This document shows, piece after piece, positions 30,623 to 48,370 of a DNA stretch of 64,000 nucleotides. Every line of letters begins with the position of its first letter. The stretch's first letter is position 1. The stretch is from assembly GCA_947628695.1 (NCBI GenBank), contig CANRAV010000007.1, positions 19,549-83,548 of the forward strand, in the 5' to 3' direction. The DNA comes from an uncultured Clostridia bacterium (GTDB lineage Bacteria > Bacillota > Clostridia > Oscillospirales > CAG-382). The notes below the pieces were generated by a model. It was not told where the DNA came from. It ran no database searches and worked only from the letters and a program-made list of their open reading frames with translations. Made by a program: the position numbers and the translations under genes.

Positions 30623-30661
30623 AGCGAATGAAGCCAAACGGTTTCATTCGCTAATTTTTTT
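30623..30661. terminator. Bidirectional Rho-independent terminator
   Basis: AGCGAATGAA-N10-TTCATTCGCT is flanked by an A-run upstream and a T-run downstream, so it terminates on either strand. A second GC-rich hairpin lies at 30559-30585. Confidence 0.75.
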
Positions 30662-30699
30662 GAAAGAACGTGTAAAACGTGGGGCTGACTCTTCCGAAG

Positions 30700-30725
30700 T
30701 TGCGTAGAACATAAACTTCTACGCA
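30700..30725. repeat. Left recombination-site candidate: TTGCGTAGAACATAAACTTCTACGCA
   Basis: It has 9-bp arms (TGCGTAGAA / TTCTACGCA) around a 7-bp asymmetric spacer (CATAAAC). Its exact reverse complement occurs at 32202-32227. Confidence 0.65.
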
Positions 30726-30751
30726 TGACAAATAAAATGCTTTTCTGTTAA

Positions 30752-30780
30752 ATTCTACCACAATTTTTTCATTCCGTCAA
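30752..30780 (-). promoter_or_regulatory. Near-consensus sigma-A promoter on the minus strand inside the invertible segment, firing toward the left site
   Basis: The minus strand reads TTGACG (30780-30775), a 17-nt spacer, then TAGAAT (30757-30752). TGG immediately precedes the -10, giving an extended -10. Confidence 0.6.
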
Positions 30781-30993
30781 TGGGTTCAAGCATAATTTCG
30801 ACAATAATTAAACATTTTTTCACTCTTGGCTCCTTTCGTTGGGAGTTGAAAAAGAGAAAAATGGACTTTTTAGGGGTCTTAAGACGTGGTCAAGCCGATT
30901 CAGATGTTATTCGTTGCTGCATCGCATCCTTGTATTATCATATTAGTGAGGCTTTACAGCCTCAAAATATATGGGTTTAAAGGAGTCTTTATC

Positions 30994-32124
30994 ATGCCGA
31001 AAAGAGGGGCAAACATTCACAAGAGGAAAGATGGGCGTTGGGAAGCCCGATACAAAAAGGGGCGCACGCCGGAAGGAAAACTTATTTACGGTTCCGTGTA
31101 CGGTCATTCATACAAAGAAGCGAAGGAGAAACTGCTGTATGCTTTGTCTCAATATAAAAACGAAAGGTTGACAAAGACACATGAACACACCTTTAAGAAA
31201 ATCCTCCTAATGTGGCTGGAGAACAACCGCATCCGATGCAAGGGATCCACATGCAGCAAGTATCAGTACATGATTGAAAGGCACATTATTCCGCAGCTCG
31301 GCAACGTAAAAATGAGTGCTTTAAACGCAACGACGGTCAACACATTTTTAATAAATAAACTCACTTGCGGCCGGTTGGACAAACGCGGAGGTCTCGCTCC
31401 GTCTTATGTGCGAAGCCTTATGCTGATTATAAACGGTGCAATAAAGTTTGCCGTTTCAGAGGAATTGTGTGCGCCAATGAAAACACAAATATCGAGGCCT
31501 ACAGCGCAAAAACACGAATTGCCTATTCTAAGCCGAGATGCACAGAGAAGGCTGGAGTCCCGGCTGTTTGCCGAGCCGAGCCCGACGGGCATTGGCGTTT
31601 TGCTCTCTCTACATACCGGTATTCGCATTGGGGAAGTTTGCGCACTGACATGGAACGACGTGGATCTCGGCAACCGTATCATTCATATTCGCCATACAAT
31701 TTCTCGAATTAAAAATCCGAATGATTCAGGGACTGAAAAATCAATTTTAATTGTCGATACTCCGAAAACAAAAGCGTCCACCCGTGACATTCCGATTTCA
31801 TCGGCGTTGTATCCTGTTTTGAGTGAGTGGGCATTTAAAATCCCAAATCACTATGTTGTATCCGACAGTACCGAGTTTCTCAGTCCCAGAACCTACGAGT
31901 ACCGTTATCATCGGATACTGCACGAGTGCGGAATTGAATCAATCAATTATCATGCATTACGGCATACCTTTGCTACCCGATGTATTGAGGCCGGCGTGGA
32001 TGTAAAATCGCTTAGCGAGATTCTCGGCCATGCAAATGTGGGAATTACGCTCGGAACTTATGTGCATTCCTCGATGGATCTGAAACGTACACAGCTTGAA
32101 AAGCTGGCGTCTTTTACAGTTTAG
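30994..32124 (+). CDS. Tyrosine-type site-specific recombinase/integrase
   Basis: ATG at 30994 follows AAAGGAG. It has an N-terminal SAM-like domain, and catalytic-domain motifs (LLSLHTGIRIGEVCAL, HALRHTFAT, LGHANVGITLGTY). Confidence 0.88.
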   Translation: MPKRGANIHKRKDGRWEARYKKGRTPEGKLIYGSVYGHSYKEAKEKLLYALSQYKNERLTKTHEHTFKKILLMWLENNRIRCKGSTCSKYQYMIERHIIPQLGNVKMSALNATTVNTFLINKLTCGRLDKRGGLAPSYVRSLMLIINGAIKFAVSEELCAPMKTQISRPTAQKHELPILSRDAQRRLESRLFAEPSPTGIGVLLSLHTGIRIGEVCALTWNDVDLGNRIIHIRHTISRIKNPNDSGTEKSILIVDTPKTKASTRDIPISSALYPVLSEWAFKIPNHYVVSDSTEFLSPRTYEYRYHRILHECGIESINYHALRHTFATRCIEAGVDVKSLSEILGHANVGITLGTYVHSSMDLKRTQLEKLASFTV

Positions 32125-32201
32125 TCCAAAGCTATATAGTGGTCAAATTTGTGGTCGTATAGTCGTGGAGAAATTGTGAAATAAACGTTATTTGCAATTA
32201 T

Positions 32202-32227
32202 TGCGTAGAAGTTTATGTTCTACGCAA
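32202..32227. repeat. Right recombination-site candidate (exact inverted copy of the left site)
   Basis: TGCGTAGAAGTTTATGTTCTACGCAA. The spacer GTTTATG is the reverse complement of CATAAAC, so the two sites are in inverted orientation. Confidence 0.65.
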
Positions 32228-32353
32228 ACAACTGCACCGGGAGCAGGCAATTCTTTGTGTTTCTGCTGCAATGACAGAGGTGCGAGAAGGACGTAGCAAA
32301 TCTACCGGTAATTGATAGATAAACGAAGCAAATAAAGCGGAGGTGGGGTGTAT

Positions 32354-33472
32354 TTGATCGAGTTTAGGCCAAAGCTTAGGGATGGCCGCTTAGTTGTCAG
32401 AGTAAAGCTGTCCCCTTATGATGTGATCAACGGCACCGAGCTTGATATTATCTCCGGCTCTTACATCCGAGGCTTTTTGAAAGCAAGGCAAATCAAACGA
32501 AATGTGATTGAATATACAGGCCCGGTTGGAATTCCATTGGTCAGCCGTATGAAGAAACCCATTTCTCAATATGACTTTTTCTTTATCATGGAGCAGATTG
32601 TTGACGCAGCGCAAAAACTGCAGCGTTCCAACCTTCTTCCCGGGAAAGTGACTTGGGATATTCGCAATGTTTATATCAATGAGGCAACCAAAGAACTGCA
32701 GTTTATATACGTGCCGATTACATCGGCTCAGATAAATTCAAATATCATAGCATTTATAGAGTCTATAGTTTATGCAGCGATTCCGTTGCCGAATCAGAAT
32801 CCGGATTATATTTCACAGTTTTTGTATTTCATTAATTCGCTGCCAAGATTCAATGCGGATGCAATCGAGAAATATATTGCCAAGGTTGATAGAAAAGTTG
32901 TAAACACAATCAAACAGCATGCCTCCGTTTCAAGTGGATTTATGACCGACAAGCCAAAAGATTATTATGCGCATCTTGACGAGAAAAAGGGAGAGGGCAA
33001 TGATAATGAACCGGCGGATTATATTGACGATGATGCACCGACGGATCTTCTTGATGAAGAAAAAACAGGCCTTCTCGACGAAGATGCGCCAACAGGGCAT
33101 CTTGATGAAGGAGAAGAAACAGGATTGCTGAGTGATGAAGAGGGGACAGCTCTTCTTGATGAAAGCGGAACAGATATTCAATACCCCACGCTTTGCCGTG
33201 TTTTAACCGGGGAAACAATTGTTATCAACAAGCCGGTTTTCCGCATTGGAAAAGAACACAGCTATGTTGACTTTTTTGTCAGCAACAATAATGCAGTCAG
33301 CAGAAGCCACGCAGATATCATAACCAGAGGACAGAGATATTTCGTTATTGATCTGAACTCGAAGAACAGAACCTTCATTAACAATCAAGCACTTCCCGTA
33401 CAGCAAGAAGTGGAAATCTTTAACGGAGATCGATTAAAATTGGCGAACGAAGAGTTTGTGTTCAGTATATAG
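32354..33472 (+). CDS. FHA-domain protein with an N-terminal ~200-aa domain, an acidic T-x-L-L repeat linker and a C-terminal FHA
   Basis: The C-terminal FHA is FRIGKE...VSRSHADI...DLNSKNRTFINN. The linker has 5 repeats of the (E/P)TxLLDE type. TTG at 32354 lies 9 nt after GGAGGTG; the ORF track starts at GTG 32348. Confidence 0.8.
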   Translation: MIEFRPKLRDGRLVVRVKLSPYDVINGTELDIISGSYIRGFLKARQIKRNVIEYTGPVGIPLVSRMKKPISQYDFFFIMEQIVDAAQKLQRSNLLPGKVTWDIRNVYINEATKELQFIYVPITSAQINSNIIAFIESIVYAAIPLPNQNPDYISQFLYFINSLPRFNADAIEKYIAKVDRKVVNTIKQHASVSSGFMTDKPKDYYAHLDEKKGEGNDNEPADYIDDDAPTDLLDEEKTGLLDEDAPTGHLDEGEETGLLSDEEGTALLDESGTDIQYPTLCRVLTGETIVINKPVFRIGKEHSYVDFFVSNNNAVSRSHADIITRGQRYFVIDLNSKNRTFINNQALPVQQEVEIFNGDRLKLANEEFVFSI

Positions 33473-33486
33473 AAGGGGACAGTCTT

Positions 33487-34146
33487 ATGAGCAAATTGTG
33501 CCGAAATTGTAATACGGTGTTGGACGACACGGATACATTCTGTTTTCACTGTGGGACGCCTGTGGACACTTCCAATGACGGGGAAACAAGCCTTTTGACA
33601 GATGATAATGAAGAAACGGGGCTCCTAAACAGCACCGATAAAGATACCTCTTTACTTGACGAGGAAACGAGGGAGTTGAACCCCGAGGATATGCCAAGAT
33701 ACACGCCGCAGTATGCTCCTTCGCAGCCGTCATTTGGTCAAAACACGCCTAATTCACCGCAGAGATTGAGCGAGAAGGATTTTTATGAAAAATTCGTCTC
33801 GAAAAAGATAAAAGGGTGGACTACGGCTATCGGCGTGCTTTCGCTTGTTTCAGGCGGAATTAATCTGCCGCTCTTATTTCTCGGCAATTTGCTTTCGATT
33901 ATAGACATTGCTTTTTATGTTTCAATGGGCATTTTGATATTAACAACAAAAAAATGGGGACTGCCGCTTGCGGTCACTATATACAGCGGGGTCTTTTCCG
34001 TTATCACCGTTGCGATCAGCGGTATTCCCAGTGGAATTGCAGTATTGATAGTTGGAATTTTCGCAACAATCTATCTTAAAAAAGCAAACGATGCATACAA
34101 ACTGTATTGCGAATCCGGGGTACTCCCCCAGAAGCCTGTTGAGTGA
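33487..34146 (+). CDS. Zinc-ribbon membrane protein with T-x-L-L repeats
   Basis: It has an N-terminal CRNC...CFHC ribbon, then ETSLL/ETGLL/DTSLL repeats, then 3-4 C-terminal TM helices. Confidence 0.7.
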   Translation: MSKLCRNCNTVLDDTDTFCFHCGTPVDTSNDGETSLLTDDNEETGLLNSTDKDTSLLDEETRELNPEDMPRYTPQYAPSQPSFGQNTPNSPQRLSEKDFYEKFVSKKIKGWTTAIGVLSLVSGGINLPLLFLGNLLSIIDIAFYVSMGILILTTKKWGLPLAVTIYSGVFSVITVAISGIPSGIAVLIVGIFATIYLKKANDAYKLYCESGVLPQKPVE

Positions 34147-34159
34147 GGAGGAGCAAAAG

Positions 34160-34921
34160 ATGCGGTTTTTAGCAACTGCGGACACCGACATCGGGATCAG
34201 TAAAGGCACAAATCAAGACAGCGTTTTAATAAAACATGCCGCATACGATGACGGCGAGACACTAATGGCCATCGTATGCGATGGGATGGGCGGACTCTCT
34301 AAAGGTGAGCTTGCCAGCGCAACCGTAATTCGGGCGTTTTCCAAGTGGTTTGAAGAAGACCTCCCTTATGAGCTCGATGATGTAAACATGGAGGTCATCG
34401 GCGGGAAATGGTCGCTGATGCTGAAGGATCTGAATGCAAAGATTGCTGAATACGGAAAGCAAATAAATGAAAGCTTAGGTACCACATTCTCCGGTATCCT
34501 TTTTGCCGGTGATCAATACGTTATTGTCCATGTAGGGGATTCACGCGTTTATCAAATTGGGTCTTCCATGCGTCAACTCACTACGGATCAAACCTTCATT
34601 GCCAGGGAAATCAGCCGTGGTACTATGACGCTGGAGCAGGCGAAAACAGACAAACGCCGCAATCTCCTTTTGCAATGTGTAGGTGCGTCTGAGGTTGTCA
34701 CTCCGCAGGTGTTGTGCGGAAAGGCGGAAAAAGGCGCATACATGCTCTGCTCGGACGGATTTCGCCATGAAATTAGCGATGAAGAAATGTATGAATCGCT
34801 CAACCCGATAAACTTAATGAACAAACAGGCGATGCATAATAATACGAAATATCTGATCGAGCAGGCAAAGTCGCGTAAAGAAAAGGATAACATCTCCGTT
34901 ATCCTGATCAAAGCGGAGTGA
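34160..34921 (+). CDS. PP2C-family Ser/Thr protein phosphatase
   Basis: It has TDIGISKGTNQDS, the CDGMGG metal-binding motif and a C-terminal DNISVILI. ATG at 34160 follows GAGGAGGAG. Confidence 0.88.
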   Translation: MRFLATADTDIGISKGTNQDSVLIKHAAYDDGETLMAIVCDGMGGLSKGELASATVIRAFSKWFEEDLPYELDDVNMEVIGGKWSLMLKDLNAKIAEYGKQINESLGTTFSGILFAGDQYVIVHVGDSRVYQIGSSMRQLTTDQTFIAREISRGTMTLEQAKTDKRRNLLLQCVGASEVVTPQVLCGKAEKGAYMLCSDGFRHEISDEEMYESLNPINLMNKQAMHNNTKYLIEQAKSRKEKDNISVILIKAE

Positions 34922-34932
34922 GGTAAGACGAC

Positions 34933-36657
34933 ATGACGGAAATCGGCACCGTAATTGACGGCAAGTATGAGATACTGAAAGAAATCGGCCGCGGCGGTAT
35001 GTCTATCGTCTATCTCGCCATGGATAAGCGGCTCAATAAGCAGTGGGCGGTTAAGGAAATACGCAAAAAGGGCAGCGGTAAGAATGACGAAGTTGTTGTC
35101 AACAGCCTGCTTGCGGAAGCCAACTTAATGAAGAGGCTGGATCATCCCGCTTTGCCGAGGATTGTCGATATTATTGATAATGGCGTAACGATCTATGTAG
35201 TCATGGACTACATAGAGGGCGAATCCCTCGATAAGATCCTTAACGAGTACGGTGCGCAGCCTGAAGAAACGGTCATTACTTGGGCAAAGCAGCTTTGTGA
35301 TGCGCTCTCCTATCTGCACTCACAAAAGCCACCGATTATTTATCGCGACATGAAGCCGGCCAACGTCATGCTCAAGCCGGAAGGCAATATTAAAATTATT
35401 GATTTCGGCATTGCACGTGAGTACAAGGAGCAAAACCTTGCCGATACCACGGTGCTTGGTACTAAGGGCTATGCACCTCCGGAACAGTACAGCGGTCAGA
35501 CAGATCCGCGTTCCGACATTTTCGCCCTTGGTATGACGATGCATCATCTGCTTACCGGAATTGATCCGAGGAACGGCGACGCCTACTCATCTGTTCGTCA
35601 GTGGAACCCGGAGCTTTCGGAAGGTATTGAGGCAATCATTGATAAATGCGTTCAGCCGGCGGCAGAAAACCGATACCAAAGCTGCGCAGATCTGCTGTAT
35701 GACCTTGAACATCCCGAATTGATTACCGGAGGGTTCAAGAAAAAGCAGAAAAGAAAACTGGGTGCCTTTATTACCGCAGCGGTTTTGAGCGCCTTGATGT
35801 TAATCTCCGGGCTTGTCTGCCGAGGGCTGGCTGCCATGATTAACACAAATAACTATGAGGCGTATATCGCATCCCAAAACAATATAGAAAACTATAAACT
35901 GGCTATCGAGCTGTATCCGAACGATCCGAGGGCATACGATAGGATTTTGGATACATTTGACAACAGCATCAACACAAGGTCGGATTCCGATGCGGAGAAG
36001 CTGCTTACATCGGAGGAGTTAAAGCAGTTTGAAGCACTTTACGACCCAAGCGATGACGCGAAGTACAGCAGCGATTATCAGGGCTTTTCGGAGCTCAACT
36101 ATCGCATCGGGAAAATGTGCTTTACCTATTACGACAGGACTCTTTCGCAGAACGAAAATTTCAGCGCGAGAATCAATAAGGCGTATATCTATCTGAATCA
36201 AAACCACACCTTTATTCAGAATTCACAGGTGGCGCAGTCATCCGGTAACATGCAGCTTTCCGAGTGCTACTTTCAAATTTGCGACTTCTATAAAAAGTAT
36301 ATCTTCAGCCAAACGGCGGACACGGCCTCTGCAGAGGATTTCGCAAGCTTTTTCGGTTCATTGGATGACTTGCTTGACGGTGTAGAGAGCAATTCATCCG
36401 CTACTGCCTATGATAAGCTGGAGCTGTACAACAACATATTCATGCTTCTGTATGACAGAAGAGCGGATATGGTTTCCGCAGGCGTCAGCCGGGACATTGT
36501 GCTGGAGCTGTTTGACAGGGTCTACAGCAGCGCTGAAGAAATTGATGCCTCCCAGCGGACACTGTGGACTGTCCTTAAGGCTGAAATGCAGGATAATTAC
36601 GCAACCTACAAGGCTGCGATTCAAAGGGCCTATACCAATGCGGAGGGAAGGGGTTAA
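34933..36657 (+). CDS. Hanks-type Ser/Thr protein kinase with one TM and a ~280-aa extracytoplasmic domain
   Basis: The kinase motifs are a G-loop (GRGGMSIVY), a catalytic Lys (WAVKEI), a catalytic loop (YRDMKPANVM), DFG, and GTKGYAPPE. The TM is at about aa 265-290. No PASTA repeats were recognised. Confidence 0.88.
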   Translation: MTEIGTVIDGKYEILKEIGRGGMSIVYLAMDKRLNKQWAVKEIRKKGSGKNDEVVVNSLLAEANLMKRLDHPALPRIVDIIDNGVTIYVVMDYIEGESLDKILNEYGAQPEETVITWAKQLCDALSYLHSQKPPIIYRDMKPANVMLKPEGNIKIIDFGIAREYKEQNLADTTVLGTKGYAPPEQYSGQTDPRSDIFALGMTMHHLLTGIDPRNGDAYSSVRQWNPELSEGIEAIIDKCVQPAAENRYQSCADLLYDLEHPELITGGFKKKQKRKLGAFITAAVLSALMLISGLVCRGLAAMINTNNYEAYIASQNNIENYKLAIELYPNDPRAYDRILDTFDNSINTRSDSDAEKLLTSEELKQFEALYDPSDDAKYSSDYQGFSELNYRIGKMCFTYYDRTLSQNENFSARINKAYIYLNQNHTFIQNSQVAQSSGNMQLSECYFQICDFYKKYIFSQTADTASAEDFASFFGSLDDLLDGVESNSSATAYDKLELYNNIFMLLYDRRADMVSAGVSRDIVLELFDRVYSSAEEIDASQRTLWTVLKAEMQDNYATYKAAIQRAYTNAEGRG

Positions 36658-36659: not shown

Positions 36660-37160
36660 ATGGCAGACGTATTATCAATTGTTTCGCTTGTCTCCTTCAT
36701 CATTGCAGGTATCAGCCTTGCCGTTGCAGTGTTCCTCTGGTTTAGCTTTAAAATCCCAACGGTTATCGGAGATCTGACCGGAAAAACAGCCAAAAAATCC
36801 ATTGCAAAGATGCGCAAAAGCAACGAGGCTTCCGGGAACAAATCTTACCGTCCAAGCGCAGCTAATGTGAATCGCGGCAAGATTACGGATTCCATCCCGG
36901 ATTCGGCAAAGCCGAATTCGCAGGCAGCCGCTTCCACTCCTTTTGATAAAGGTCAAACGGGAATCCTCGATGAAAACAAAGCATCCGGGAACTGTGCAGA
37001 GCCTACCGCAGCGCTTGATGACAGCGCAACCGAGCTTCTTTCGGGCAGTGAAGAAACCGAGCTGCTTCCACAGGAAGCGCAGGCAAAGCGCAGGGCTGCA
37101 ATTAAGAAATTGAGAATGCTTGATGAAGTCATTTATATCCACACCGATGAGGTGATTTAG
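36660..37160 (+). CDS. Single-pass membrane protein with a cytoplasmic T-x-[LI]-L repeat tail
   Basis: It has an N-terminal TM (IVSLVSFIIAGISLAVAVFLWF), then QTGIL, PTAAL, ATELL and ETELL motifs. It starts 3 nt after the kinase stop. Confidence 0.65.
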   Translation: MADVLSIVSLVSFIIAGISLAVAVFLWFSFKIPTVIGDLTGKTAKKSIAKMRKSNEASGNKSYRPSAANVNRGKITDSIPDSAKPNSQAAASTPFDKGQTGILDENKASGNCAEPTAALDDSATELLSGSEETELLPQEAQAKRRAAIKKLRMLDEVIYIHTDEVI

Positions 37161-37245
37161 CACAAGTCATTATAAAACAAGCACATTATACTGCAAATTT
37201 TAGTTGTGCAAACGGTGCGGTAGAATATGAAATGAGGAATTCGCA

Positions 37246-37731
37246 ATGGGATATGGAGCGTATTTATCGATAAAACGGCGAAAGAAAATGAAATTTGCCT
37301 TTATTGGCTCGCTCTCTTTGATGTCGCTGTCAATTGCCTTCATGCCGATAGCCAGCGAGTACCGTGGAGACAGCATGCTGCCCACCATACTAACGGGAAC
37401 GGCATTTTGGGTGGGGTTAATAGGTACGGTATTGATTGCGATATGGATCAATCGACGCCGAAAGAAAAGCACGCGTTTCAATGAATTGTATCCAAACGCG
37501 AAACAGCTTGGCGTTGTCCGTTTTTTTCAGAACAAGCCGGCGACGGTTGTGGACATTGCAATGTTTGCGGCTCTTTTGGGTTTGATAATTACCAAATTGA
37601 CTGTAGATCGGATTATCATCCCATTTGTATTTTTAGCTTTATTTGTTTTTCTGTTTGGTATGCACTGTATGCTAAACGGAGTTTGCTATAAATATCTAAA
37701 CTATAGGACAGGGAGAGGTAAAGAATTATGA
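37246..37731 (+). CDS. Small polytopic membrane protein (about 4 TM)
   Basis: A hydrophobic ORF with a GAGGAA RBS. Its stop overlaps the start of the giant gene (ATGA). Confidence 0.6.
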   Translation: MGYGAYLSIKRRKKMKFAFIGSLSLMSLSIAFMPIASEYRGDSMLPTILTGTAFWVGLIGTVLIAIWINRRRKKSTRFNELYPNAKQLGVVRFFQNKPATVVDIAMFAALLGLIITKLTVDRIIIPFVFLALFVFLFGMHCMLNGVCYKYLNYRTGRGKEL

Positions 37732-40700
37732 GACACGGAAAAAACAATGCTTTAAATAGTGCGTTAGCTGTGTTGCTTTCAGTCATGATGGTGGTTGCAA
37801 TGCTGCCGACAGGCGTATTTACTGCCTTGGCAGCAACAGAAAACCATGAGGGTGTTTTCACATTCACTGTGACCGAGAAAGAGGAAGGCAACCCTGTTGT
37901 GGGCGCAGCAGTTCGTTTGTACAACGAAGAAGGCGAGGATTGGACGCAGGAGACGGGCGAAGACGGCGTTGCCGAATTTTCCGAGTTCACGGGCAAGGGA
38001 CTTGCCGGAACCATATCCGGGAATTTCAGTTATGAGGTTACTGCGGACGGATATGAAAAGGCTTCCGGTACCGTTGACGGAAGCGATGACCAATGGATCG
38101 GGAATATTGCCGTTGAACTGAATGCGCTGACTGTCGAGCAGAAGACGGTTACCGTTGTCGTATCCGGCGGAGAAGCAACAGTTGAGCTTGACGGCGAAGA
38201 AACAAATTCGAAGACAGTCAATGTCGGCGACTCTGTTAAAGTGAAGATTACTCCGGAAGCGGGCTCTTATATTAAGAACCTAACGGTAGGGGGAACAGAG
38301 GAAACCGTTGATCACGGCCAGCCGTTTGAAAAAGATATCAATATCGACGAGGATACCGATATCAATGTAACAATCCAAAAGGAATATACCGTTTCAATCG
38401 TCCGGAACGGAGAGGGCACTGTTACCGTCAGCAAGGCCGACGGTTCCACTGTGTCCGATCAGGCAAAAGTTGATGCCGGGGAAGTGCTTACGATCAATGT
38501 AGCGCCAAAAGATGACAGTTATCAAATTGACTCGGTGAAAATCAATTCCGATGAGATGCTGACTGACGACAACAAGACGTCATACAAAGGCACCGTCACG
38601 GTGAATGACGATGTGAAAATTGAGGTTGTCTTTGTTGCGGTGTTCAGCGTCACCGTGACGGTTGACGGCTCCGGGGATGCAAGCGTCATGCTCGACGGGG
38701 AGGTTATCGGTGGAGCCGGTGGATCTGTAACGGTCAAAACGGGAACGAAAATCGATGTGGAAGCGACGCCGCATGAACACTATCGGGTTATTGACGTTAT
38801 CGTTAACGGCGTTCCCAAAGAAGATGTATCCGGGAAAAATGACTCCGACTACAAAATCGAAGGGCTTGAGGTAAATCAGACTTATGAAATTACGGTTACC
38901 TTTGCCCTGAACGTATACACTGTTACGGCTGATGAAGCGAAGAACGGGACTGTAACGGTTGAAGAGCCTGCTCAGGTCGAATGGGGCAAGGATAAAAAGG
39001 TCTATGTATCTCCGGCAGACGGATATACGATCGATAAGATTACCGTTGATTCCGAACCTGTCGAAGCTGTCTCCGGTGATGACGGAGGATTCTATTTTAT
39101 CGTTGCAAACATTCAGTCCGATAAGAATGTAATAGTCACCTTCAAGGAAAAAGCAAAAGCAACGGACGCCGATTTTACAATAGACGAACGTAATATTTTG
39201 CGTTCGGAAGTGGGGGCCGACTCTGCGCTTTATGTCATAAAGCAAGACACCTCCGTTACCTTCTCCACAGATAAGGCGGGAATCAAACTCATTGATGACA
39301 AGGGGCTTGTAATAGGCGGAAGCGAGAACGAAAAGTCTGTCTCTGTTTCCGAAGCGAAAACTATTGATAAAATACAACTGTATTATAAGGCCGATGAAGA
39401 GCTATATGAGGATTGGCATGATGTGCAAACTGTGAAGAAGGAGGTTTTTGTTGACACAGAGGCTCCTACTGTACAGTTTGATGCTGTTAAACCGGATATG
39501 AACGCCAACGGATACCACCATACGGATATTGAGGTAACCGTAAAGGCCACGGATGCTCCGGAGAAAAAATATTCCGGTATTCAAAAGTTAGAATATTTAA
39601 TTAGCGACGACGGCAAGGATGGCTCTTGGAATACACTGTATGAGTATTCCGAGGACAGTGAAATTGAGAATGTCATTACAAGCACAGTCGACATTGATGC
39701 GACGGAGCATAATTCCCGTGATGTAATACTGAAAATCAAGGCGACAGACCTTGCGGGAAATACCAAAGAACTTCAAAAAGAATTCCACATCAACAGCACC
39801 GTTCCTTTAGTTAAGCTTGAACTGGACGGCGTATCGAACGTGAATGCCGAGACCGGATATTTCACCACAGATCGCGTGCTTACCATTACTATTACAGACC
39901 GCGACGATACTTTTGACAGGAACGCCGTTGCAGACGGGCTTAAAATTACCGCAGACGGAAACGCGGTCGAAGTGAAACCCGAGGATATTGATTGGGGCGG
40001 CAATGATCAAGAGCATACCGGGACGTATGTGTTCTCCAAAGACGCTCACTACAAATGGAGCTTTTCCTACACAAATAAAGCAGGTGTGGAAAATAAAGAT
40101 ATTACATGCGCGAATCCCGAAGATGCAAGCTTTTACGATTTTACAATCGACCATGAAGGCCCCCGGGAATTGAGTATTGAATACAGCCCAAGTATCACTG
40201 ATGTTTCGTTCGGTGACCTGAGCTATGGGTTCTACAATTCCGATGTGACAGTAACAATAAAAGCAATCGATAAAACTGCGGGAATTAAAGAGTTTGAATA
40301 CTTTTGCAAGGAACAGGGAAGCGGCGAGACAATTTTTCACAAAACCGTCAATGCCAATGATCCGAATTTCAAGGTAAACGGTGATGAAACAAGCTATACA
40401 TTCACTATTCCTGCTGAATTCCGCGGTTCGGTAAGCTTCTCTGCGACCGATAAGGCAGGGCAGACAAATTCCTATGACGATCCCAAAATCATTGTTGTTG
40501 ATAACGTTGCGCCAAAAGTAACTGTTAGCTATGATAACAATGAAGTCGAAAACGAAAAATACTACAAAGGCAAGAGAACTGCTACAATTGAAATTGATGA
40601 AGCGAATTTCTTCGGCACCGATGAATACGGACAGGCCGATTTCAATGATTTGATTTCAGGCAAGGAGAATACTTACCTTGAAATAACCGACGGCTTCCAT

Positions 40701-43700
40701 ACATATAAGCTGTGCCCGGAATTTAAGGAAACGTCCGACGGGAAGTATGTAGCCACAGTTAGCTTCGACGAAGACGCCGATTACACATTGACCGTCAAGT
40801 ACACGGATAGATCGGGCAATGAAGCGGTTATCGGCGAATATCAGGAGGAATTCACGGTTGATACGACCGCCCCGACTATCGAAGTATCTTTTGATAATAA
40901 CAAAGCAGCAAATGAAAAATATTTTGCTGCGGATCGGAAAGCAACAATTAAGGTAACAGAGCACAATTTTGACCCCGCTGCTTTTACCGCCGGTATCGTG
41001 TGCCCCGACTCTCCGACGACCGATTTTGATGCTTATCTGCAAAATACTTCAAGCTGGCATAGCGACGGCGATGTCTACACGGCGGTAATTACGTTTAAAG
41101 ACGACGGGCACTACACCTTCAATCCTTCCTGCCGCGACAAGGCCGGTAACGATAACACCGCGGTTGATTACGGAGAATCTGTTTCGACTGAGGAGTTTGT
41201 ATTGGATAAGGCTGCCCCGGATCAGGAAAGCCTTAAGATTTCCTATTCCGAATCGGTTTTGGATACCGTTTTGGAGACAATCTCCTTTGGATTCTATAAA
41301 GCCCCGGTAACCGTTACAATCGAAGCAGCGGATCAAACCTCCGGAATTGATTACTTTACTTATACCTATGCAGTAAGCGATGGCGTGAGCGCAAAGAATC
41401 AGGGAAAAGAGAGCGTGGTTATCGCACATTCCGAAATAATTACTTCCGGGAATTCCGCCAGTGCAACCTTCCAAATCCCCGCACAGTTCCGCGGCACTGT
41501 TTCTTTTGCCGCAACCGACATGGCAGGGAACAGCGGAGATAAGGCTGACAGTAAGGTCGTTGTCGTTGACGATATCGCACCCGGCATTACGGTGTCTTTT
41601 GACAACAACGATGTAAGAAACGGGAAATATTACGCCAAGGATAGGACCGCAACAATCACTATCGATGAAGCGAACTTCTTTGGCGATGCCGACAGAGAGT
41701 ACCTTGCAATCTCCGTGACCAAACGGCTTTTGAGCGGCTCGAAGTCGGAGACAACGACAAAGCTGTATCCCGAGTTTACCAAAAAAGGCGATACATACAC
41801 AGCTGAAATCGAGTTTAATGAGAATGCCGAGTATAAGCTTGAAATCGAGTATACAGACCGTTCCGGCAACGTCGGGACCGTTGCAGAGTATCAGAAGGAA
41901 TTCGTTATCAATAAGGAGTCTCCGAAGCTTTCGATCTCCTATGATAACATGTCTGTACAGAACGAAACCTATTACAGGGCGGACCGTGTTGCAACGGTTC
42001 AAATTGTAGAAAGCACATTCCGCGCAAGCGAAGTTGAGTTCACTATTTCCGCGACGGATGTGACGGGCAAGGCTGTCGATTTAAGCAGTAAGGCGTATGA
42101 GACCTATTTGAAGGATCAGAGCAGCTGGACAATGTCCGGGGATAATGTATGGACGGCTCAGATCACGCTGGATATCGAAGGCAGCTACGAGCTGAACCTC
42201 AAATATGAAAACCTCGCCGGAACGCCTCAGGAAAAGGAGGTAACCGATTCCTTCTGCATTGATAAGAGCAAGCCGGACAACCTTAAAATCTCCTACAAGC
42301 CGGATTTTGTCGGCGTACTGTTGGAGACCCTGACCTTCGGGTTCTACAAGGCGCCTGTGGAAGTAACACTTGAGGCCACAGACGGTTATGCCGGGGTGGA
42401 TTACTTTGTGTACTCCTATAAGGTTCAGGAGAACGCAAGCAAAAAGAATGCAGGGAAGACAGCTGTCAAGACGGTTGAAGGTCAGTTGTCCCGCAAAGGC
42501 AGCAAAGCTTCTGTGACATTTGATATTCCGTCGCAGTTCCGTGGATTTGTTTCCTTTGATGTGTTTGATAAATCGGGAAATAAAAACAGCTTAGCCGATG
42601 CAAATGCAGTTGTTGTCGACGATCTCCCGCCTCAAATTACCGTGACATACGACAACAACGATGCGTCCTACGAGAAATATTACAACAAAGACAGGGTCGC
42701 AACTATCACAGCCGAAGAGGCCAACTTCTTCTATGAGGATTTGACGAAGGACAACCTTTTGGTGATTACCGTCGATAAGACTACGGATGCAGGCGTGCAT
42801 ACCGCGGAAAAGGTAATGCCTGCATTTACCAAGAACGGCGATGTGTACACAGGCACCGTCGAGTTTAGGGAGAATGCCGATTACAAATTTACAATTGAAT
42901 ACACCGATCGTTCCGGCAACGCTGCGGTAATCAAGGAATACCAGACCGAATTTACCGTTGATAAAACAGCGCCGACGGTCAAAGTTACCTACGACAACAA
43001 CAGCAGCAAAAACGGCGATCAGTTTAAGGAAGACCGCACGGCAACCATTGTAATTACGGAACACAACTTCAAGCCTTCCGATATTGTCGCAAAAGTAACC
43101 GCTAACGGAACGGAAGTTACGGATTATGCTTCCTATCTGAAAAACGCCGACAGCTGGACGACCGATGGGGATGTCCACACGGCCAAGATTGAGTATACAG
43201 ACGAAGCGCACTATGAATTCAGCATTGGCTATTCCGACATGGCCGGTATAAAAAATGCGCCTGTTGACTATGCCGATTCGGCTGCACCGGAAAAATTCAC
43301 TCTTGACAAGAGCGCTCCGACACAATTGGAAATCACGATCGACGGCAAGTCTGTATTGGAAAGCAAAGGCATCGCGTTTGATACGTTCTACGACAAAGCG
43401 GTGACTGTGAAATTTGCCGCAAACTGTGATATCAGCGGATTGGAGTCCTTGAAGTACCAGAAGGTTCCTTCCGTATCCGAATACGATGTGAACGGTCAGT
43501 GGATTGATTATAACACCGAAACAGGTGTTGTTGTCACACCAAGCGAAAAGTTCATCATCTATTTCAGGGCGGAAGACAGAGCGGGAAACTTCACAATTGT
43601 CAACTCGACCGGTATCGTCGTCGACGATAAGATGCCGGAGGGTACCGGTGAAAAGAATGCGCCTGAGATTGACATTTTCCCGGCTGAACCGAATGCTAAC

Positions 43701-45968
43701 GGCTTCCATAACGGGAATGTTAAGGTGGATTTGCATGTCATCGATCCGAAGTACACCGGGCAGAGCGCAAGCGCAGCAGGGCATTATTCCGGACTTAATG
43801 AAATCACCTACCGTATTTACACGACGGATATGGGCGCGGATGTTCAGGAAACAGGCACTTTGCTTGAGCTTGGAGCTCAAACGAATGGCGCCGTGTTTGA
43901 CGGCGACCGCTTGGTCAGCTCGTGGTCCGGAAGCATTACGATTGACGCGGCTGTGTTTAACAGCAATAACACGATCGTTGAAATTACGGCCACCGACAAC
44001 GCCGGCAATACAAGGGTTACCGCGACCAAGGCCGGAGACATTCAAATCGATGTGACCGCTCCGGAAATCAATGTTAGCTACAACAATAACACAGCCGACA
44101 GCAATTTTTTCTTTAATGAAGACAGAACGGCTACAGTTGTTGTGACGGAGCGCAACTTTGCCCCGGAGGATGTCAAGGTGACAATCACTAACACTGACGG
44201 CGTGATCCCTTCACTGTCCGAGTGGAGGCAAATCTCTGCCGGAACCGGGAACGGAGACGGCACCGCTTGGGAAGCAACCGTCACATACAGCGCAGACGGT
44301 GATTACACGTTTGACATTACCTATACAGACCTCGCCGACAATCTTATGAGCGGGGTAGGCTACGGGGAAAGTGTTGTGCCGACCGAGTTTACGATCGATA
44401 AAACACTGCCGACAATCTCGGTAAGCTACAGCAACAATGATGCGGCGAACGAAAAATACTTCAAAGCACCCCGAACGGCTACGGTTACAATCAACGAACA
44501 TAACTTTGATGTGAACCGCGTGACGTTTACAAGAACAGCAGCTCTGGACGGAGCGGCGATTGATCTGCCAAATGAATCCTGGGAGCATAACGGCGATGTG
44601 CATACGGCAACCATCCCGTACACGGCTGACGGCGATTACACATTTGATGTTACAATGACGGATCTCGCAGGCAACCGGAGCGAGGCTGCAAACTACGGGG
44701 ACTCTGTTGCGGCGAATGACTTTACGGTTGATCAAACCCGTGACAACGGCGGTGCATCCGTTATAGGCGGCGTTGAGGACGGACAAGCTTATTCCGGCAA
44801 TGTGGTTCCGTCGATCAACTTCACGGATGTCAACTACAGCAATTATGAAATTCACCTTTATCGTACCAGAAAAGATCAGATTCATGTCGATGTTACTGAT
44901 GAGAAGAATATTCGCTCCCTGATTACAGAGAGCGAGCAGAACATCAGCGGTGAACTTAATATCTTCGCCAAGAACACAAGTGGAAAATATAGTGTCGAGG
45001 ACGACGGTATCTACACGCTGGAGATCACTGCCTACGATATGGCCGGCAACGAACATCCCGAGACTGTAACCTTCACTGTAAACCGTTTCGGCTCCGTGTA
45101 TGTGTATGACGCCTATCTGATTTCCTTGATTCAGGAAGGCGGCGCTTATGTGCAGGGACTTACCGGTGATCTGATTATTACAGAGTATAACGCCACCAGA
45201 CTTGTCAATGACTCCCTGAACATTGAAATTACGCTTGACGGCCGTCCCATTGAGGCCAAGTATGTCGCTGACCCTGTTCCGAACGCAAATGTCGATGTTG
45301 GGCAAAGCGGATGGTTCCAGTATCAGTATACCGTAAGCAAAGATAACTTCAAAGCCGACGGTATGTACCGCATAACCCTCTCCTCCGAAGATGAGGCAGC
45401 CAATACGCCTGAAAGCAATCCGAACAACTCAACGGACAAAGACGGAAATGCAATAGTCGATACGATGCAGTTCCGCGTTGACAGTACAGCTCCGGAAATA
45501 ACAAGCATCGTCGGTCTGGAGAACAGGATCATCAATGGGCAAAAAGTAGACGTTCGATATTCTGTATATGATGCGATTGGCTTGAAGTCCATCACAGTGT
45601 ATTTGAACGGCAAGGCTCAAGATCCGATTACCGAGTTCGACGATATAAACAACTACTCCGGCACATTTACGGTAAGCGAAAGCTCCGACGCACAAAAGGT
45701 TCGCATACTCGTCGAGGATAAGGCCGGAAACACCATTGACACCGATGATTTCGGCAAGGAAGACGCTGACGGAAACGTTATCGTGCCGATGCCTGCTTAC
45801 TCCTTTAACAGCACCGTAACGGTATCTACGAACTTCTTCGTTCGTTGGTATGCGAATAAGCCTCTGTTCTGGGGTTCAATCGGCGGTACTGTCGGCATGG
45901 CAGCAGTCATTTGGATTCTCATCGTTCTGATTAAAAAGAAAAAGAAGAAGAGCAGTGAGAAAAAATAA
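37728..45968 (+). CDS. Giant (2,746 aa) Ig-like-repeat surface protein with a signal peptide and a C-terminal TM anchor
   Basis: - An N-terminal signal peptide is present.
- Four ~85-aa B-repeat-like units follow.
- At least 10 repeats then carry the signature D(K/T)xAPxhxVxYDNN...KYY...DR(T/V)ATIxIxExNF.
- The C-terminus has a hydrophobic helix and a KKKKKKSSEKK tail, with no LPxTG. Confidence 0.85.
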   Translation: MRHGKNNALNSALAVLLSVMMVVAMLPTGVFTALAATENHEGVFTFTVTEKEEGNPVVGAAVRLYNEEGEDWTQETGEDGVAEFSEFTGKGLAGTISGNFSYEVTADGYEKASGTVDGSDDQWIGNIAVELNALTVEQKTVTVVVSGGEATVELDGEETNSKTVNVGDSVKVKITPEAGSYIKNLTVGGTEETVDHGQPFEKDINIDEDTDINVTIQKEYTVSIVRNGEGTVTVSKADGSTVSDQAKVDAGEVLTINVAPKDDSYQIDSVKINSDEMLTDDNKTSYKGTVTVNDDVKIEVVFVAVFSVTVTVDGSGDASVMLDGEVIGGAGGSVTVKTGTKIDVEATPHEHYRVIDVIVNGVPKEDVSGKNDSDYKIEGLEVNQTYEITVTFALNVYTVTADEAKNGTVTVEEPAQVEWGKDKKVYVSPADGYTIDKITVDSEPVEAVSGDDGGFYFIVANIQSDKNVIVTFKEKAKATDADFTIDERNILRSEVGADSALYVIKQDTSVTFSTDKAGIKLIDDKGLVIGGSENEKSVSVSEAKTIDKIQLYYKADEELYEDWHDVQTVKKEVFVDTEAPTVQFDAVKPDMNANGYHHTDIEVTVKATDAPEKKYSGIQKLEYLISDDGKDGSWNTLYEYSEDSEIENVITSTVDIDATEHNSRDVILKIKATDLAGNTKELQKEFHINSTVPLVKLELDGVSNVNAETGYFTTDRVLTITITDRDDTFDRNAVADGLKITADGNAVEVKPEDIDWGGNDQEHTGTYVFSKDAHYKWSFSYTNKAGVENKDITCANPEDASFYDFTIDHEGPRELSIEYSPSITDVSFGDLSYGFYNSDVTVTIKAIDKTAGIKEFEYFCKEQGSGETIFHKTVNANDPNFKVNGDETSYTFTIPAEFRGSVSFSATDKAGQTNSYDDPKIIVVDNVAPKVTVSYDNNEVENEKYYKGKRTATIEIDEANFFGTDEYGQADFNDLISGKENTYLEITDGFHTYKLCPEFKETSDGKYVATVSFDEDADYTLTVKYTDRSGNEAVIGEYQEEFTVDTTAPTIEVSFDNNKAANEKYFAADRKATIKVTEHNFDPAAFTAGIVCPDSPTTDFDAYLQNTSSWHSDGDVYTAVITFKDDGHYTFNPSCRDKAGNDNTAVDYGESVSTEEFVLDKAAPDQESLKISYSESVLDTVLETISFGFYKAPVTVTIEAADQTSGIDYFTYTYAVSDGVSAKNQGKESVVIAHSEIITSGNSASATFQIPAQFRGTVSFAATDMAGNSGDKADSKVVVVDDIAPGITVSFDNNDVRNGKYYAKDRTATITIDEANFFGDADREYLAISVTKRLLSGSKSETTTKLYPEFTKKGDTYTAEIEFNENAEYKLEIEYTDRSGNVGTVAEYQKEFVINKESPKLSISYDNMSVQNETYYRADRVATVQIVESTFRASEVEFTISATDVTGKAVDLSSKAYETYLKDQSSWTMSGDNVWTAQITLDIEGSYELNLKYENLAGTPQEKEVTDSFCIDKSKPDNLKISYKPDFVGVLLETLTFGFYKAPVEVTLEATDGYAGVDYFVYSYKVQENASKKNAGKTAVKTVEGQLSRKGSKASVTFDIPSQFRGFVSFDVFDKSGNKNSLADANAVVVDDLPPQITVTYDNNDASYEKYYNKDRVATITAEEANFFYEDLTKDNLLVITVDKTTDAGVHTAEKVMPAFTKNGDVYTGTVEFRENADYKFTIEYTDRSGNAAVIKEYQTEFTVDKTAPTVKVTYDNNSSKNGDQFKEDRTATIVITEHNFKPSDIVAKVTANGTEVTDYASYLKNADSWTTDGDVHTAKIEYTDEAHYEFSIGYSDMAGIKNAPVDYADSAAPEKFTLDKSAPTQLEITIDGKSVLESKGIAFDTFYDKAVTVKFAANCDISGLESLKYQKVPSVSEYDVNGQWIDYNTETGVVVTPSEKFIIYFRAEDRAGNFTIVNSTGIVVDDKMPEGTGEKNAPEIDIFPAEPNANGFHNGNVKVDLHVIDPKYTGQSASAAGHYSGLNEITYRIYTTDMGADVQETGTLLELGAQTNGAVFDGDRLVSSWSGSITIDAAVFNSNNTIVEITATDNAGNTRVTATKAGDIQIDVTAPEINVSYNNNTADSNFFFNEDRTATVVVTERNFAPEDVKVTITNTDGVIPSLSEWRQISAGTGNGDGTAWEATVTYSADGDYTFDITYTDLADNLMSGVGYGESVVPTEFTIDKTLPTISVSYSNNDAANEKYFKAPRTATVTINEHNFDVNRVTFTRTAALDGAAIDLPNESWEHNGDVHTATIPYTADGDYTFDVTMTDLAGNRSEAANYGDSVAANDFTVDQTRDNGGASVIGGVEDGQAYSGNVVPSINFTDVNYSNYEIHLYRTRKDQIHVDVTDEKNIRSLITESEQNISGELNIFAKNTSGKYSVEDDGIYTLEITAYDMAGNEHPETVTFTVNRFGSVYVYDAYLISLIQEGGAYVQGLTGDLIITEYNATRLVNDSLNIEITLDGRPIEAKYVADPVPNANVDVGQSGWFQYQYTVSKDNFKADGMYRITLSSEDEAANTPESNPNNSTDKDGNAIVDTMQFRVDSTAPEITSIVGLENRIINGQKVDVRYSVYDAIGLKSITVYLNGKAQDPITEFDDINNYSGTFTVSESSDAQKVRILVEDKAGNTIDTDDFGKEDADGNVIVPMPAYSFNSTVTVSTNFFVRWYANKPLFWGSIGGTVGMAAVIWILIVLIKKKKKKSSEKK

Positions 45969-45990
45969 TATTACATAACTCTTCGGATAT

Positions 45991-46017
45991 TCCCGTGCAG
46001 GCTTGTCCTGCACGGGA
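45991..46017 (+). terminator. Stem-loop after the giant gene (possible attenuator/terminator)
   Basis: TCCCGTGCAGG-CTTGT-CCTGCACGGGA, a perfect 11-bp stem with no T-run. Confidence 0.4.
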
Positions 46018-46112
46018 GCCCGAAAGTCTATTCATCAGAATCCGGATTATGCATTCGTGCTTAGTTCGGCTTGTAATGAATAGCGCCGGCAAATTGATAG
46101 GAAGTGATAAAA

Positions 46113-47024
46113 ATGAACACTTTAATTGAAAAGGAAGTCGTAAGCGAAATGACCTGCGGTTCTAATTTTGCCTATGTGCTGACCGATAACGCTTCCTTCC
46201 TTACGACGGAATACAAGGTCTTACAGAGCAAAACAAGCAATTGCTTTGTGCGCTGTATGAAGATGCTTTATAACGGAAAAATTCAGCTTTATTACCTGAC
46301 GGGAACGTATAAGCCGTTATCTTCTCTATTTTCAACCTTGGATGCGGAAAGGTTTATCACTATTACCGCCAATCTCCTATCTGATATTATCGAGGTAAAG
46401 AGCAACGGGTTTCTGTCCTGCCAAAATATAGATATTTCGTTTGAGCACATTTTCGTTGACCCGGCGACATATAAGGTGAGCCTGATTTATTTGCCGTTGA
46501 GCCGGCACATGTTTGACGATACTGCGTATTTCGATAACGAGCTGCGTACAAGCCTAATTAAGTTGATTTCCGGGCTGAGCAACTTATCCTCGCCTAAAAC
46601 GATCCGGCTATCATCCGATTTGTCAAACGGTGCATTGTCGCTGGAAGATTTGTATAACAGGTTGAAGGGCAACCGTCCTGACCCCCGACTTAATGTCGAA
46701 TCCCGCCCTGCGAGTTCTCCTGCTTCAAATGTTCGGATTGTTTCTCTTAACGCTCCTGCACGTGTGGAGATCAACATCACAAAGGACGAGTTTATACTTG
46801 GGAAAAAGGCCGATAAGGTGGACGGCGTGCTTTCCTTTAATGACAAAATCAGCCGCGTGCATTGCAAAATCAACCGAAACGGCGACCGGTTCACTATAAC
46901 GGATCTACATAGTGCCAACGGAACCTATGTAAATCATGTTCGCCTTCAGCCTGATGTGGCACAGCCCATAAAAAACGGTGATTTAATCCGTTTGGCCAAT
47001 AGTGATTTTCAGATTGTTATGTGA
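46113..47024 (+). CDS. Second FHA-domain protein, a paralogue-like partner of 32354-33472
   Basis: The C-terminal FHA is FILGKK...ISRVHCKI...DLHSANGTYVN. The N-terminal domain shares the pattern NI(D/Y)h...(L/V)x(F/L)IY(L/V)P with the first FHA protein. Confidence 0.8.
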   Translation: MNTLIEKEVVSEMTCGSNFAYVLTDNASFLTTEYKVLQSKTSNCFVRCMKMLYNGKIQLYYLTGTYKPLSSLFSTLDAERFITITANLLSDIIEVKSNGFLSCQNIDISFEHIFVDPATYKVSLIYLPLSRHMFDDTAYFDNELRTSLIKLISGLSNLSSPKTIRLSSDLSNGALSLEDLYNRLKGNRPDPRLNVESRPASSPASNVRIVSLNAPARVEINITKDEFILGKKADKVDGVLSFNDKISRVHCKINRNGDRFTITDLHSANGTYVNHVRLQPDVAQPIKNGDLIRLANSDFQIVM

Positions 47025-47039
47025 TAGGAGGGGCGATAA

Positions 47040-48095: not shown

Positions 48096-48105
48096 GAGGT
48101 CCGCT

Positions 48106-48360
48106 ATGGCAAAAGAAACGGCAATTGTTATATTTAATATTCTCAAGCGGAATGTTTCTGTGGATTTAGAAATCCCGTTAGATATTACTGCGAATGAGTT
48201 GGTTATCGCACTTAACACTGCATACAGACTGGGCATTGATACAAGTGACATAAAAAACTGCTATCTGAAAGCAGAAAATCCTATTATTTTACTCCGTGGA
48301 AACAAAACCTTGGCTGAGTTCGGGCTGAGAAACGGAAGCAGTATCAATTATACAGAATAG
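48106..48360 (+). CDS. yukD: YukD/EsaB-like ubiquitin-fold T7SS protein
   Basis: 84 aa with the pattern VDLEIPLDITANELVIAL ... LRGNKTLAEFGLRNGSSI, typical of YukD/EsaB. It lies immediately upstream of essC. Confidence 0.75.
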   Translation: MAKETAIVIFNILKRNVSVDLEIPLDITANELVIALNTAYRLGIDTSDIKNCYLKAENPIILLRGNKTLAEFGLRNGSSINYTE

Positions 48361-48370
48361 GAGAATTACC

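Follow-up and report, generated by a model that had tools for sequence, protein, structure and literature searches.

A candidate invertible promoter cassette carrying its own tyrosine recombinase beside a type VII secretion system-like locus in an uncultured Clostridia bacterium

In the 64,000-nucleotide (nt) stretch of contig CANRAV010000007.1 from an uncultured Clostridia bacterium (hereafter, the window), a tyrosine recombinase gene and a near-consensus, outward-facing promoter motif, P_out, are enclosed by two inverted repeats next to a row of genes resembling a type VII secretion system (T7SS) locus. The segment bounded by these repeats is 1528 bp long (30700-32227), and no coding sequence crosses either end. 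It holds one real gene, that of the recombinase, while the other open reading frames (ORFs) listed there are short overlapping frames. The two 26-nt repeat copies (TTGCGTAGAACATAAACTTCTACGCA on the left) are 100% complementary and separated by 1476 nt. Each copy can be written as TGCGTAGAA-CATAAAC-TTCTACGCA, in which palindromic 9-bp arms surround an asymmetric 7-nt spacer. Since each copy is near-palindromic, its polarity can be read only from the 7-nt spacer and one flanking base, and the left and right spacers prove to be opposite in orientation. Therefore, recombination between the two sites would flip the segment instead of excising it. The direct overlap orientation of attL/attR-type sites was found neither in the window nor in the 18 close relatives examined, all of which have inverted spacers. 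A scan for the arrangement TGCGTAGAA-N7-TTCTACGCA with at most three mismatches returned only these two sites in 64 kb, compared with 0.07 expected, and two matches were obtained in none of 100 shuffles. Each repeat copy can be folded into a 9-bp stem with a 7-nt loop, and a T-run 3' of either copy is absent on both strands.

The recombinase carries no serine recombinase (resolvase) domain, PF00589 and PF14659 being its only Pfam matches. Its reading frame is intact, and the residues R211, H320, R323, H346 and Y356 are invariant across 20 homologues. The closest solved structure is that of the Tn1549 integrase (6EMY/6EMZ), which ranks top both by sequence (phmmer E 1.3e-19) and by fold (Foldseek E 1.5e-14). 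The predicted structure, with a mean predicted local distance difference test (pLDDT) score of 84, comprises three domains, namely an N-terminal three-strand-plus-helix unit (predicted strands 8-10, 16-24 and 30-37; helix 40-53), a SAM-like core-binding domain and the catalytic domain. Full-length lambda integrase could be aligned over ~370 columns, including this N-terminal domain. The FimB/FimE-type family models scored 22.8 bits against a cutoff of 221 (NF007370) and 21.4 against 222 (NF007371), and all curated NCBIfam models were far below threshold for this protein. By its predicted structure and its scores, the enzyme resembles the three-domain integrases of phage lambda and Tn1549 and is not a FimB-type invertase. 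A Pfam scan of the 33 other main ORFs of the window, with short ORFs left out, revealed no second recombinase domain; these ORFs correspond to ordinary chromosomal or secretion-locus genes.

P_out lies on the strand opposite to the recombinase gene. Its -10 element stops 26 nt short of the left site, and transcription is predicted to start near 30745. In the predicted fold, the minus-strand transcript forms the repeat hairpin and then the 30652-30623 terminator with its U5 tract, the same terminator that also ends the exonuclease gene upstream of the cassette. No plus-strand promoter-like site was found within the target-operon leader, and an Rfam scan of 30400-32500 returned no known RNA element. 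A second promoter-like site (TTTACA-16-TATAGT, 10/12) is located on the plus strand at 32113-32140, within the 3'-terminal part of the recombinase gene, and is directed towards the operon; as a candidate for a right-end promoter of the whole family it was rejected, since it is not conserved in relatives. The coordinates of all these features are collected in Table 1. A preliminary description of this DNA had pointed out the exact 26-bp inverted repeat with its 9-bp arms and asymmetric 7-bp spacer, and direct reading bears this out. It had further described the enclosed recombinase gene as the only one in the window, which agrees with the scan of the 33 further main ORFs, and placed a minus-strand consensus-type promoter just inside the left site, which we confirm at 30780..30752. 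The same account had P_out now aimed leftward into a bidirectional terminator and the operon devoid of a convincing promoter of its own, and both statements hold here.

Table 1. Coordinates of the features of the candidate cassette and its surroundings in the window.
Feature	Position	Strand	Details
Bidirectional intrinsic terminator, outside left site	30623..30652	.	13-bp stem, T-run on both strands
Left core-type recombination site	30700..30725	.	exact reverse complement of 32202-32227; family-conserved outer arm TTGCGTAGAAC
Outward promoter P_out	30752..30780	-	TTGACG, 17 nt, TGt-TAGAAT; match 10/12
Candidate arm-type sites upstream of recombinase gene	30873..30894	+	GGGGTC-N7-GTGGTCAAG
Tyrosine recombinase gene, 376 aa	30994..32124	+	PF00589 Phage_integrase (E 4.5e-26) + PF14659
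Candidate arm-type sites after recombinase stop codon	32139..32157	+	GTGGTCAAATTTGTGGTCG
Right core-type recombination site, spacer inverted relative to left	32202..32227	.	inversion breakpoints of relatives inside homologous sites
Target-operon leader	32228..32347	+	own promoter not detected
First target-operon genes: FHA/DUF6382, zinc-ribbon membrane protein, PP2C phosphatase, Ser/Thr kinase	32348..36657	+	Pfam
Rest of co-directional row: two small proteins, 2746-aa Ig-repeat protein, second FHA/DUF6382, ParA-like ATPase, EssC-like ATPase	36660..52882	+	

As the preliminary description had proposed, related genomes were compared for both orientations of the segment. All loci (denoted L plus a number) were oriented with the recombinase gene on the plus strand, so that an inversion appears as a collinear cassette with both flanks reversed. 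Both orientations were found. In four independent pairs of related genomes (the window and L101 versus L005; L017 versus L018; L020 versus L019; L020 versus L022), the first of which includes the nearest relatives of the window, the cassette has opposite orientations between homologous flanks, and the breakpoints fall within the repeats. Together with the inverted spacers, these pairs support the earlier expectation that the segment flips and is not excised. In the comparison of the window with L005 (86% protein identity), the cassettes align forward at 81% (30701-32227 with 1309-2834), whereas the terminator flank (30601-30725 with 2934-2809) and the FHA gene (32381-32961 with 581-1) are reversed. 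The hairpin of L005 that is homologous to the window terminator is situated on the opposite side of the cassette, beyond the right site. L101 is collinear with the window; its cassette aligns forward with that of L005 at 69%, while both flanks are reversed at 75-77%. The neighbours of L005 and L101 are alike, with DUF3268, sigma-70 and S26 peptidase genes on one side and TetR, FHA, zinc ribbon and PP2C genes on the other. In the pair of L017 and L018, the cassette (4793-6221) is forward at 94% and both flanks are reversed at 95-98%, the outer flanks swapping partners inside TTTCGTAGAACATCAAATTCT. Compared with L020, the cassettes of L019 and L022 are forward at 72% and 78%, and the flanks reversed at 92% and 80%, respectively.

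The gene set that opens the target operon of the window also adjoins the cassette in 13 other groups of loci, in one orientation or the other. The orientation of the cassette relative to the FHA/PP2C/kinase operon divides these loci into two groups. P_out faces the operon in seven loci (L005, L014, L016, L018, L019, L022 and L027) and points away from it in the window, L009, L017, L020, L021, L101 and the L090-L099 group. In the promoter-facing loci whose repeats can be detected, 23-124 nt separate the site from the operon start, while in the promoter-away loci the P_out side meets a convergent gene or a terminator. As far as sequence comparison goes, this pattern is that of a two-state switch with one regulated flank. 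Regarding L019 (4795-6201) and L020 (1729-3142), the cassettes are only 72% identical, while 4.7 kb of shared flank is 92% identical; the cassette may thus be exchanged, or be evolving, independently of its target operon. A TetR-family regulator gene comes first after the cassette in several loci (L005:638-1216, L101:4733-5311, L025:6262-6885 and L080:912-1577); in L005 and L101 it separates the cassette from the FHA gene, and the window has no counterpart at this position.

The cassette belongs to a large set of related loci. A protein search with the recombinase returned 7975 homologues at E <= 1e-20, and 80 loci were taken from a one-genome-per-species collection, to which closer relatives from metagenome assemblies were added. 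These 80 loci, with 35-55% protein identity, come mostly from Oscillospiraceae, Lachnospiraceae, Acutalibacteraceae and Ruminococcus. Of the 75 loci with sufficient flanking sequence, 54 have an inverted repeat of their own around the homologous gene, defined by at least 19 of 22 matching positions (shuffled controls reached a maximum of 18). The repeats occupy constant positions, ~200-260 nt upstream of the start codon on one side and 60-90 nt downstream of the stop codon on the other. In the 18 closest alignable loci, the outer arm TTGCGTAGAAC is conserved and the inner arm (G)TTCTAC partly so. The central 5 nt of the spacer vary between loci, while the two copies of a locus agree in them in 17 of the 18 loci for which the conserved motif allowed alignment. 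This within-locus identity corresponds to the overlap requirement of tyrosine recombinases, whereas a terminator hairpin or an operator would not need it. In L017, the two sites (4793-4822 and 6192-6221) differ by one base in the central spacer (CATCAAAT versus CATCTAAT), and this locus may be locked in the promoter-away state; in its near-identical sister L018 the spacers match and the orientation is opposite. A third copy of the site was observed on one side of L050 (3313-3340, 3402-3420) and L069 (4953-4970, 5050-5069), which could permit alternative inversions or deletion.

P_out is likewise a feature of the family. For 51 cassettes, the best outward sigma-70-type match within 130 nt of each end was scored. 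At the left end, on the strand opposite to the recombinase gene, the mean score was 11.5 and 67% of the cassettes scored at least 11, compared with a mean of 8.6 and 1.2% in left-end shuffles. The right end gave a mean of 7.9, and none (0%) reached 11. In the 34 loci with a left-end score of at least 11, 19-49 nt lie between the end of the -10 element and the repeat, and many of these promoters are perfect TTGACA-17-TGnTATAAT matches. Because no gene lies between P_out and the repeat, its transcript must cross the site. Furthermore, ~20 of 50 cassettes have a strong intrinsic terminator immediately inside the right site, so that in these only P_out exits the cassette; the window copy has no such terminator. 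The flanking genes elsewhere in the family include TadZ-like pilus genes, Wzy_C, a sugar transferase and an FctA-type pilin, as well as genes for a dockerin protein, a transglutaminase-like protein, TetR regulators and trypsin-FHA proteins, targets that are typical of phase variation. In the L090-L099 left flanks (e.g. L090:1-4458), the cassette and its FHA/PP2C/kinase operon abut conjugation genes coding for a MobL relaxase, a DUF3991-Toprim protein, a VirD4-like coupling protein and a small HTH_36 protein; the recombinase there is 62% identical, and in this lineage an integrative conjugative element may carry the entire locus.

In 26 of the 120 best homologues, the longest contig measured 1486-1591 nt, close to the size of the cassette. 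L004, L006 and L024 are not repeat-bounded. L087 (1-1481) does start and end exactly at its 30-nt repeat, but this repeat is presumed to be one base below a 31-nt assembly word, so that a break at this position may be automatic, and L089 is ambiguous for the same reason. As a sign of mixed orientations in the sampled populations, such contigs were judged uninformative.

Direct repeats of TGGTCA located directly upstream of the ribosome-binding site of the recombinase gene are conserved in relatives, and among the non-coding features of the cassette the strongest conservation is seen in the element TGGTCAA-N5/6-TGGTC, which follows the recombinase stop codon. On the plus strand, TGGTC occurs at 3.0 per kb in the upstream cluster and at 8.7 per kb in the post-stop cluster, which is 6-fold and 17-fold above the background of ~0.5 per kb, respectively, and both enrichments are strand-specific. 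Judging from the predicted fold of the protein and this conservation, these repeats are probably bound by the N-terminal domain of the recombinase as arm-type sites. The position of the upstream repeats directly before the ribosome-binding site in most relatives also leads us to speculate that they serve in autoregulation of the recombinase.

Combined, these observations suggest that 30700-32227 is very probably a self-contained invertible promoter cassette (inverton) carrying its own recombinase, and we consider it likely that this copy flips and thereby gates at least the first genes of the locus; for the window itself, we infer flipping from the intact parts and from the homologues. In the proposed mechanism, the recombinase would bind the 9-bp arms of both core sites, and in the style of lambda integrase four protomers on two core sites would exchange strands across the identical 7-bp overlap. 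With the spacers inverted, the outcome would be a flip of the segment. The N-terminal domains would meanwhile hold the TGGTCA direct repeats on either side of the recombinase gene. Because both arm clusters are inside the segment and are not reshuffled, the two orientations would be equivalent substrates, which would make the reaction reversible with no need for an excisionase-like factor. In the present orientation, P_out would transcribe ~100-120 nt across the left site into the bidirectional terminator, and the FHA/PP2C/kinase/EssC-like row, having no detectable promoter, would be off or low. After flipping, P_out would be positioned ~45 nt inside the right site, and transcripts starting near 32182 would pass through ~165 nt of leader before reaching the FHA gene, thereby turning the gene row on.

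The preliminary description had gone further in calling the element a phase-variable switch for the T7SS-like locus. At the level of the family this is supported, while for the window locus it is probable only, by way of the homologues. Its view that the assembled orientation is promoter-OFF fits P_out facing away into the terminator, although the off state may be leaky. It had also predicted control of the whole secretion system. The gene row is co-directional and no convincing plus-strand terminator was found between 32.2 and 64 kb, but gaps of 276 nt (48095-48371) and 324 nt (53364-53688) lie within it, and such a reach is an extrapolation.

Several findings weigh against a functional switch at this locus. 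Five samples of the species (ERZ27249519, ERR10663729, ERR10663726, ERR10663727 and SRR29273041), including one strain 98% identical in DNA, are all promoter-away, with contigs running through both repeats. A 62%-identical homologue (P0014), seen in ten places, is promoter-away throughout. Exact-protein look-ups with the recombinase, its 98% variant and the FHA protein found no flipped copy of the species, the right junction had no match in Joint Genome Institute (JGI) metagenome contigs, and a protein-based JGI scan gave only relatives at <=43% identity. L016 (4500-6574), with a recombinase 48% identical and the operon on the promoter side, has no detectable repeat (best 15/22); some copies may therefore be degenerate, and L016 itself may be a degenerate fixed copy. 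In the window cassette, the interval from the recombinase gene to the right repeat contains no clear terminator, and the non-conserved promoter-like site at 32113-32140 faces the operon; with both present, the current "off" orientation may be leaky. As to the enzyme, residues 1-66 have no Pfam match, and the proposed N-terminal arm binding draws on the predicted fold and the conserved repeats only. The single orientation seen in the five samples, the lack of a terminator after the recombinase gene and the site at 32113-32140 would also fit a family that inverts but a window copy that is fixed promoter-away, its locus being expressed, if at all, by read-through or from an unrecognised promoter, and L017 with its spacer mismatch could, like L016, be taken as a degenerate-looking relative. 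We nevertheless regard such a frozen state as unlikely. The repeats match at 26 of 26 positions including the spacer, and the recombinase frame is intact with all catalytic residues present. Moreover, a consensus assembly reports the majority state, in which a minority of flipped cells is invisible, so that a uniform orientation does not argue against switching.

Inversion could also be real and yet serve mainly another purpose, such as recombinase expression or the production of an antisense or insulating transcript, with the juxtaposition to the operon being incidental. Outward gene starts on both sides in ~9 of 50 cassettes, none in some, and flank genes that are mobile-element-like (D5 primase, helicase) instead of surface genes would fit this idea. 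It is made rather improbable by P_out, which is the best-conserved regulatory signal and always points outward across the nearer site with no gene between, by the set of FHA-operon loci, in which exactly one flank has a gene start and the other a convergent gene or a terminator, and by the short distance of 23-124 nt at which the operon begins in promoter-facing loci. If instead the repeats were the ends of a small mobile element or leftover attachment sites, the opposite orientations would reflect independent insertions. The recombinase is indeed of the conjugative-transposon or phage integrase type, the cassettes stand beside many different genes, the L090-L099 cassette abuts conjugation genes, and L019 and L020 combine flanks that are 92% identical with cassettes at 72%. 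Integration by a tyrosine recombinase, however, leaves overlaps in direct orientation, whereas the spacers here are inverted and preclude excision. In four pairs, the homology of both flanks extends without a break up to the repeats, so that an insertion origin would need repeated insertions at the same base in opposite orientations; neither empty sites nor multiple identical copies were seen. This origin is accordingly very improbable in our view. Least credible of all, to a degree that we hardly entertain it, is that the two 25-nt palindromes act as RNA hairpins (terminator or attenuator) or operators and that the orientation differences are assembly errors. Each copy can be folded into a stem and loop, yet neither is followed by a T-run on either strand, and the loop, that is, the spacer, is the same within a locus and variable between loci. 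The two orientations were recovered by different assemblers in separate projects, and typical assembly word sizes exceed the length of the repeats. A role of the two hairpins as terminators only was likewise set aside as unlikely, given the missing T-runs and the co-variation of the spacers between the two copies.

The preferred reading, a promoter inverton that contains its recombinase, can be compared with several known systems. The Hin/H segment of Salmonella is alike in that the recombinase gene and an outward promoter lie inside the segment and the flanking operon is driven in one orientation, and Hin is the classic recombinase within its own invertible segment (PMC5903667). Hin differs in being a serine recombinase, whereas the window encodes a tyrosine recombinase (PF00589) with arm/7-bp spacer/arm sites and candidate arm-type sites. 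Hin needs an enhancer and the Fis protein. Inversion by a tyrosine recombinase between short inverted repeats is shared with FimB/FimE-fimS of E. coli and with the RecV switches cwpV and flgB of Clostridioides difficile, in which a promoter or leader is inverted and surface structures are turned on or off (PMC5903667). Unlike the window segment of 1.5 kb with its recombinase inside, those segments measure a few hundred bp and their recombinases are encoded outside, sometimes far away. Enzymes of the FimB/E type have no arm-binding domain.

In gut Clostridia, the hCom2 study described inverton group 139 with invertase group 35, in which a tyrosine-type recombinase/integrase is associated with repeats of 13-26 nt, and measured orientation shifts of short Clostridia invertons in culture (PMC11892184). 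The reported examples are ~230-260 bp long with the recombinase nearby but outside (PMC11892184), in contrast to the recombinase inside the 1.5-kb segment of the window. With the integrases of lambda, Tn916 and Tn1549, the window system shares a core spacer of ~7 bp and nearby direct repeats that could be arm sites. Those enzymes integrate and excise between directly oriented overlaps, the direction being set by an excisionase. In the window, by comparison, the sites are inverted and flank only the integrase gene, the candidate arm clusters stay inside, and a reversible flip is expected. Type I restriction-modification hsdS shufflons carry a tyrosine recombinase gene embedded among inverted repeats. 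They are alike in that a tyrosine recombinase recombines inverted repeats in a phase-variable manner (PMC7672463), and different in that coding sequence is recombined and enzyme specificity changed, whereas the window cassette moves a promoter. We judge the switch to be known in kind, as a promoter inverton, and not a new principle, while the variant is new. The literature searched, which was incomplete, yielded no description of this cassette or of the control of a T7SS-like locus by inversion.

Beyond the window, we lean, with little more than even confidence, towards regarding this copy as one of a large, uncatalogued family of portable "plug-in" phase-variation cassettes of gut Clostridia. 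Such a unit of 1.4-1.5 kb would combine a conjugative-transposon-type integrase acting as invertase, two core sites, internal arm sites, a strong outward promoter and often a terminator at the other end, and would switch T7SS-like loci, Tad pili, capsule and adhesin genes, with the cassette maybe exchanged independently of its targets. Phase variation in gut Clostridia is far less charted than in Bacteroides; the hCom2 study found a median of 3 invertons per Clostridia-like genome, with short examples (PMC11892184). We suspect that the size of the cassette lets it escape inverton scans tuned to short segments. That 54 of 75 homologous loci have a 1.5-kb cassette of this kind, with the recombinase inside, points to a class of switches of considerable size, which may have been overlooked. 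If this is true, T7SS-like loci gated by FHA, kinase and phosphatase proteins, a secretion-system type with no earlier link to DNA inversion in the literature searched, would be under stochastic on/off control in abundant commensals, together with Tad pili and capsule genes. This would matter for competition between strains, for recognition by the immune system and for how gene-presence data from metagenomes are interpreted. The cassette would also represent a natural case of a three-domain integrase of the lambda/Tn1549 type working in reversible inversion, in which the role of arm sites is testable without their being reshuffled, and the compact, self-contained unit is a possible genetic toggle for Firmicutes. 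Since the cultured strains Butyricicoccus pullicaecorum DSM 23266 (L076) and Ruminococcus sp. LCP21S3_E8 (L009, with the FHA operon and promoter-away) carry the cassette, the predictions are directly testable. Further cultured carriers are Flintibacter porci P01025 (L055), Eubacterium sp. OM08-24 (L048) and Coprococcus intestinihominis CLA-AA-H190 (L085).

Among the genes of the target row, the EssC-like FtsK/SpoIIIE ATPase (1503 aa, 48371-52882) matches PF01580 in two stretches (E 5e-63) and contains a further P-loop region. WXG100 and EssB/EsaA-type components had no Pfam match among the scanned ORFs, small ORFs not having been examined in depth, and from the domain content "T7SS-like" appears to be a fair label. 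The linker of the first FHA protein contains tandem 27-nt (9-residue) acidic repeats of the DDAPTDLLDEE type (32999-33169). On the other side of the cassette, the upstream neighbour is a convergent exonuclease gene of the RNase_T family that has two terminators. Farther upstream, ~2.5 kb from the cassette (~27600-28203), there is a toxin-antitoxin pair of the nucleotidyltransferase/HepT type, recognised by the PF01909 and PF01934 genes that the identical contigs L001-L003 carry. The far end of the gene row encodes an unusual 663-aa fusion protein (60836-62827), in which a GDSL lipase/acylhydrolase domain is combined with a domain of the microbial poly(ADP-ribose) glycohydrolase type.

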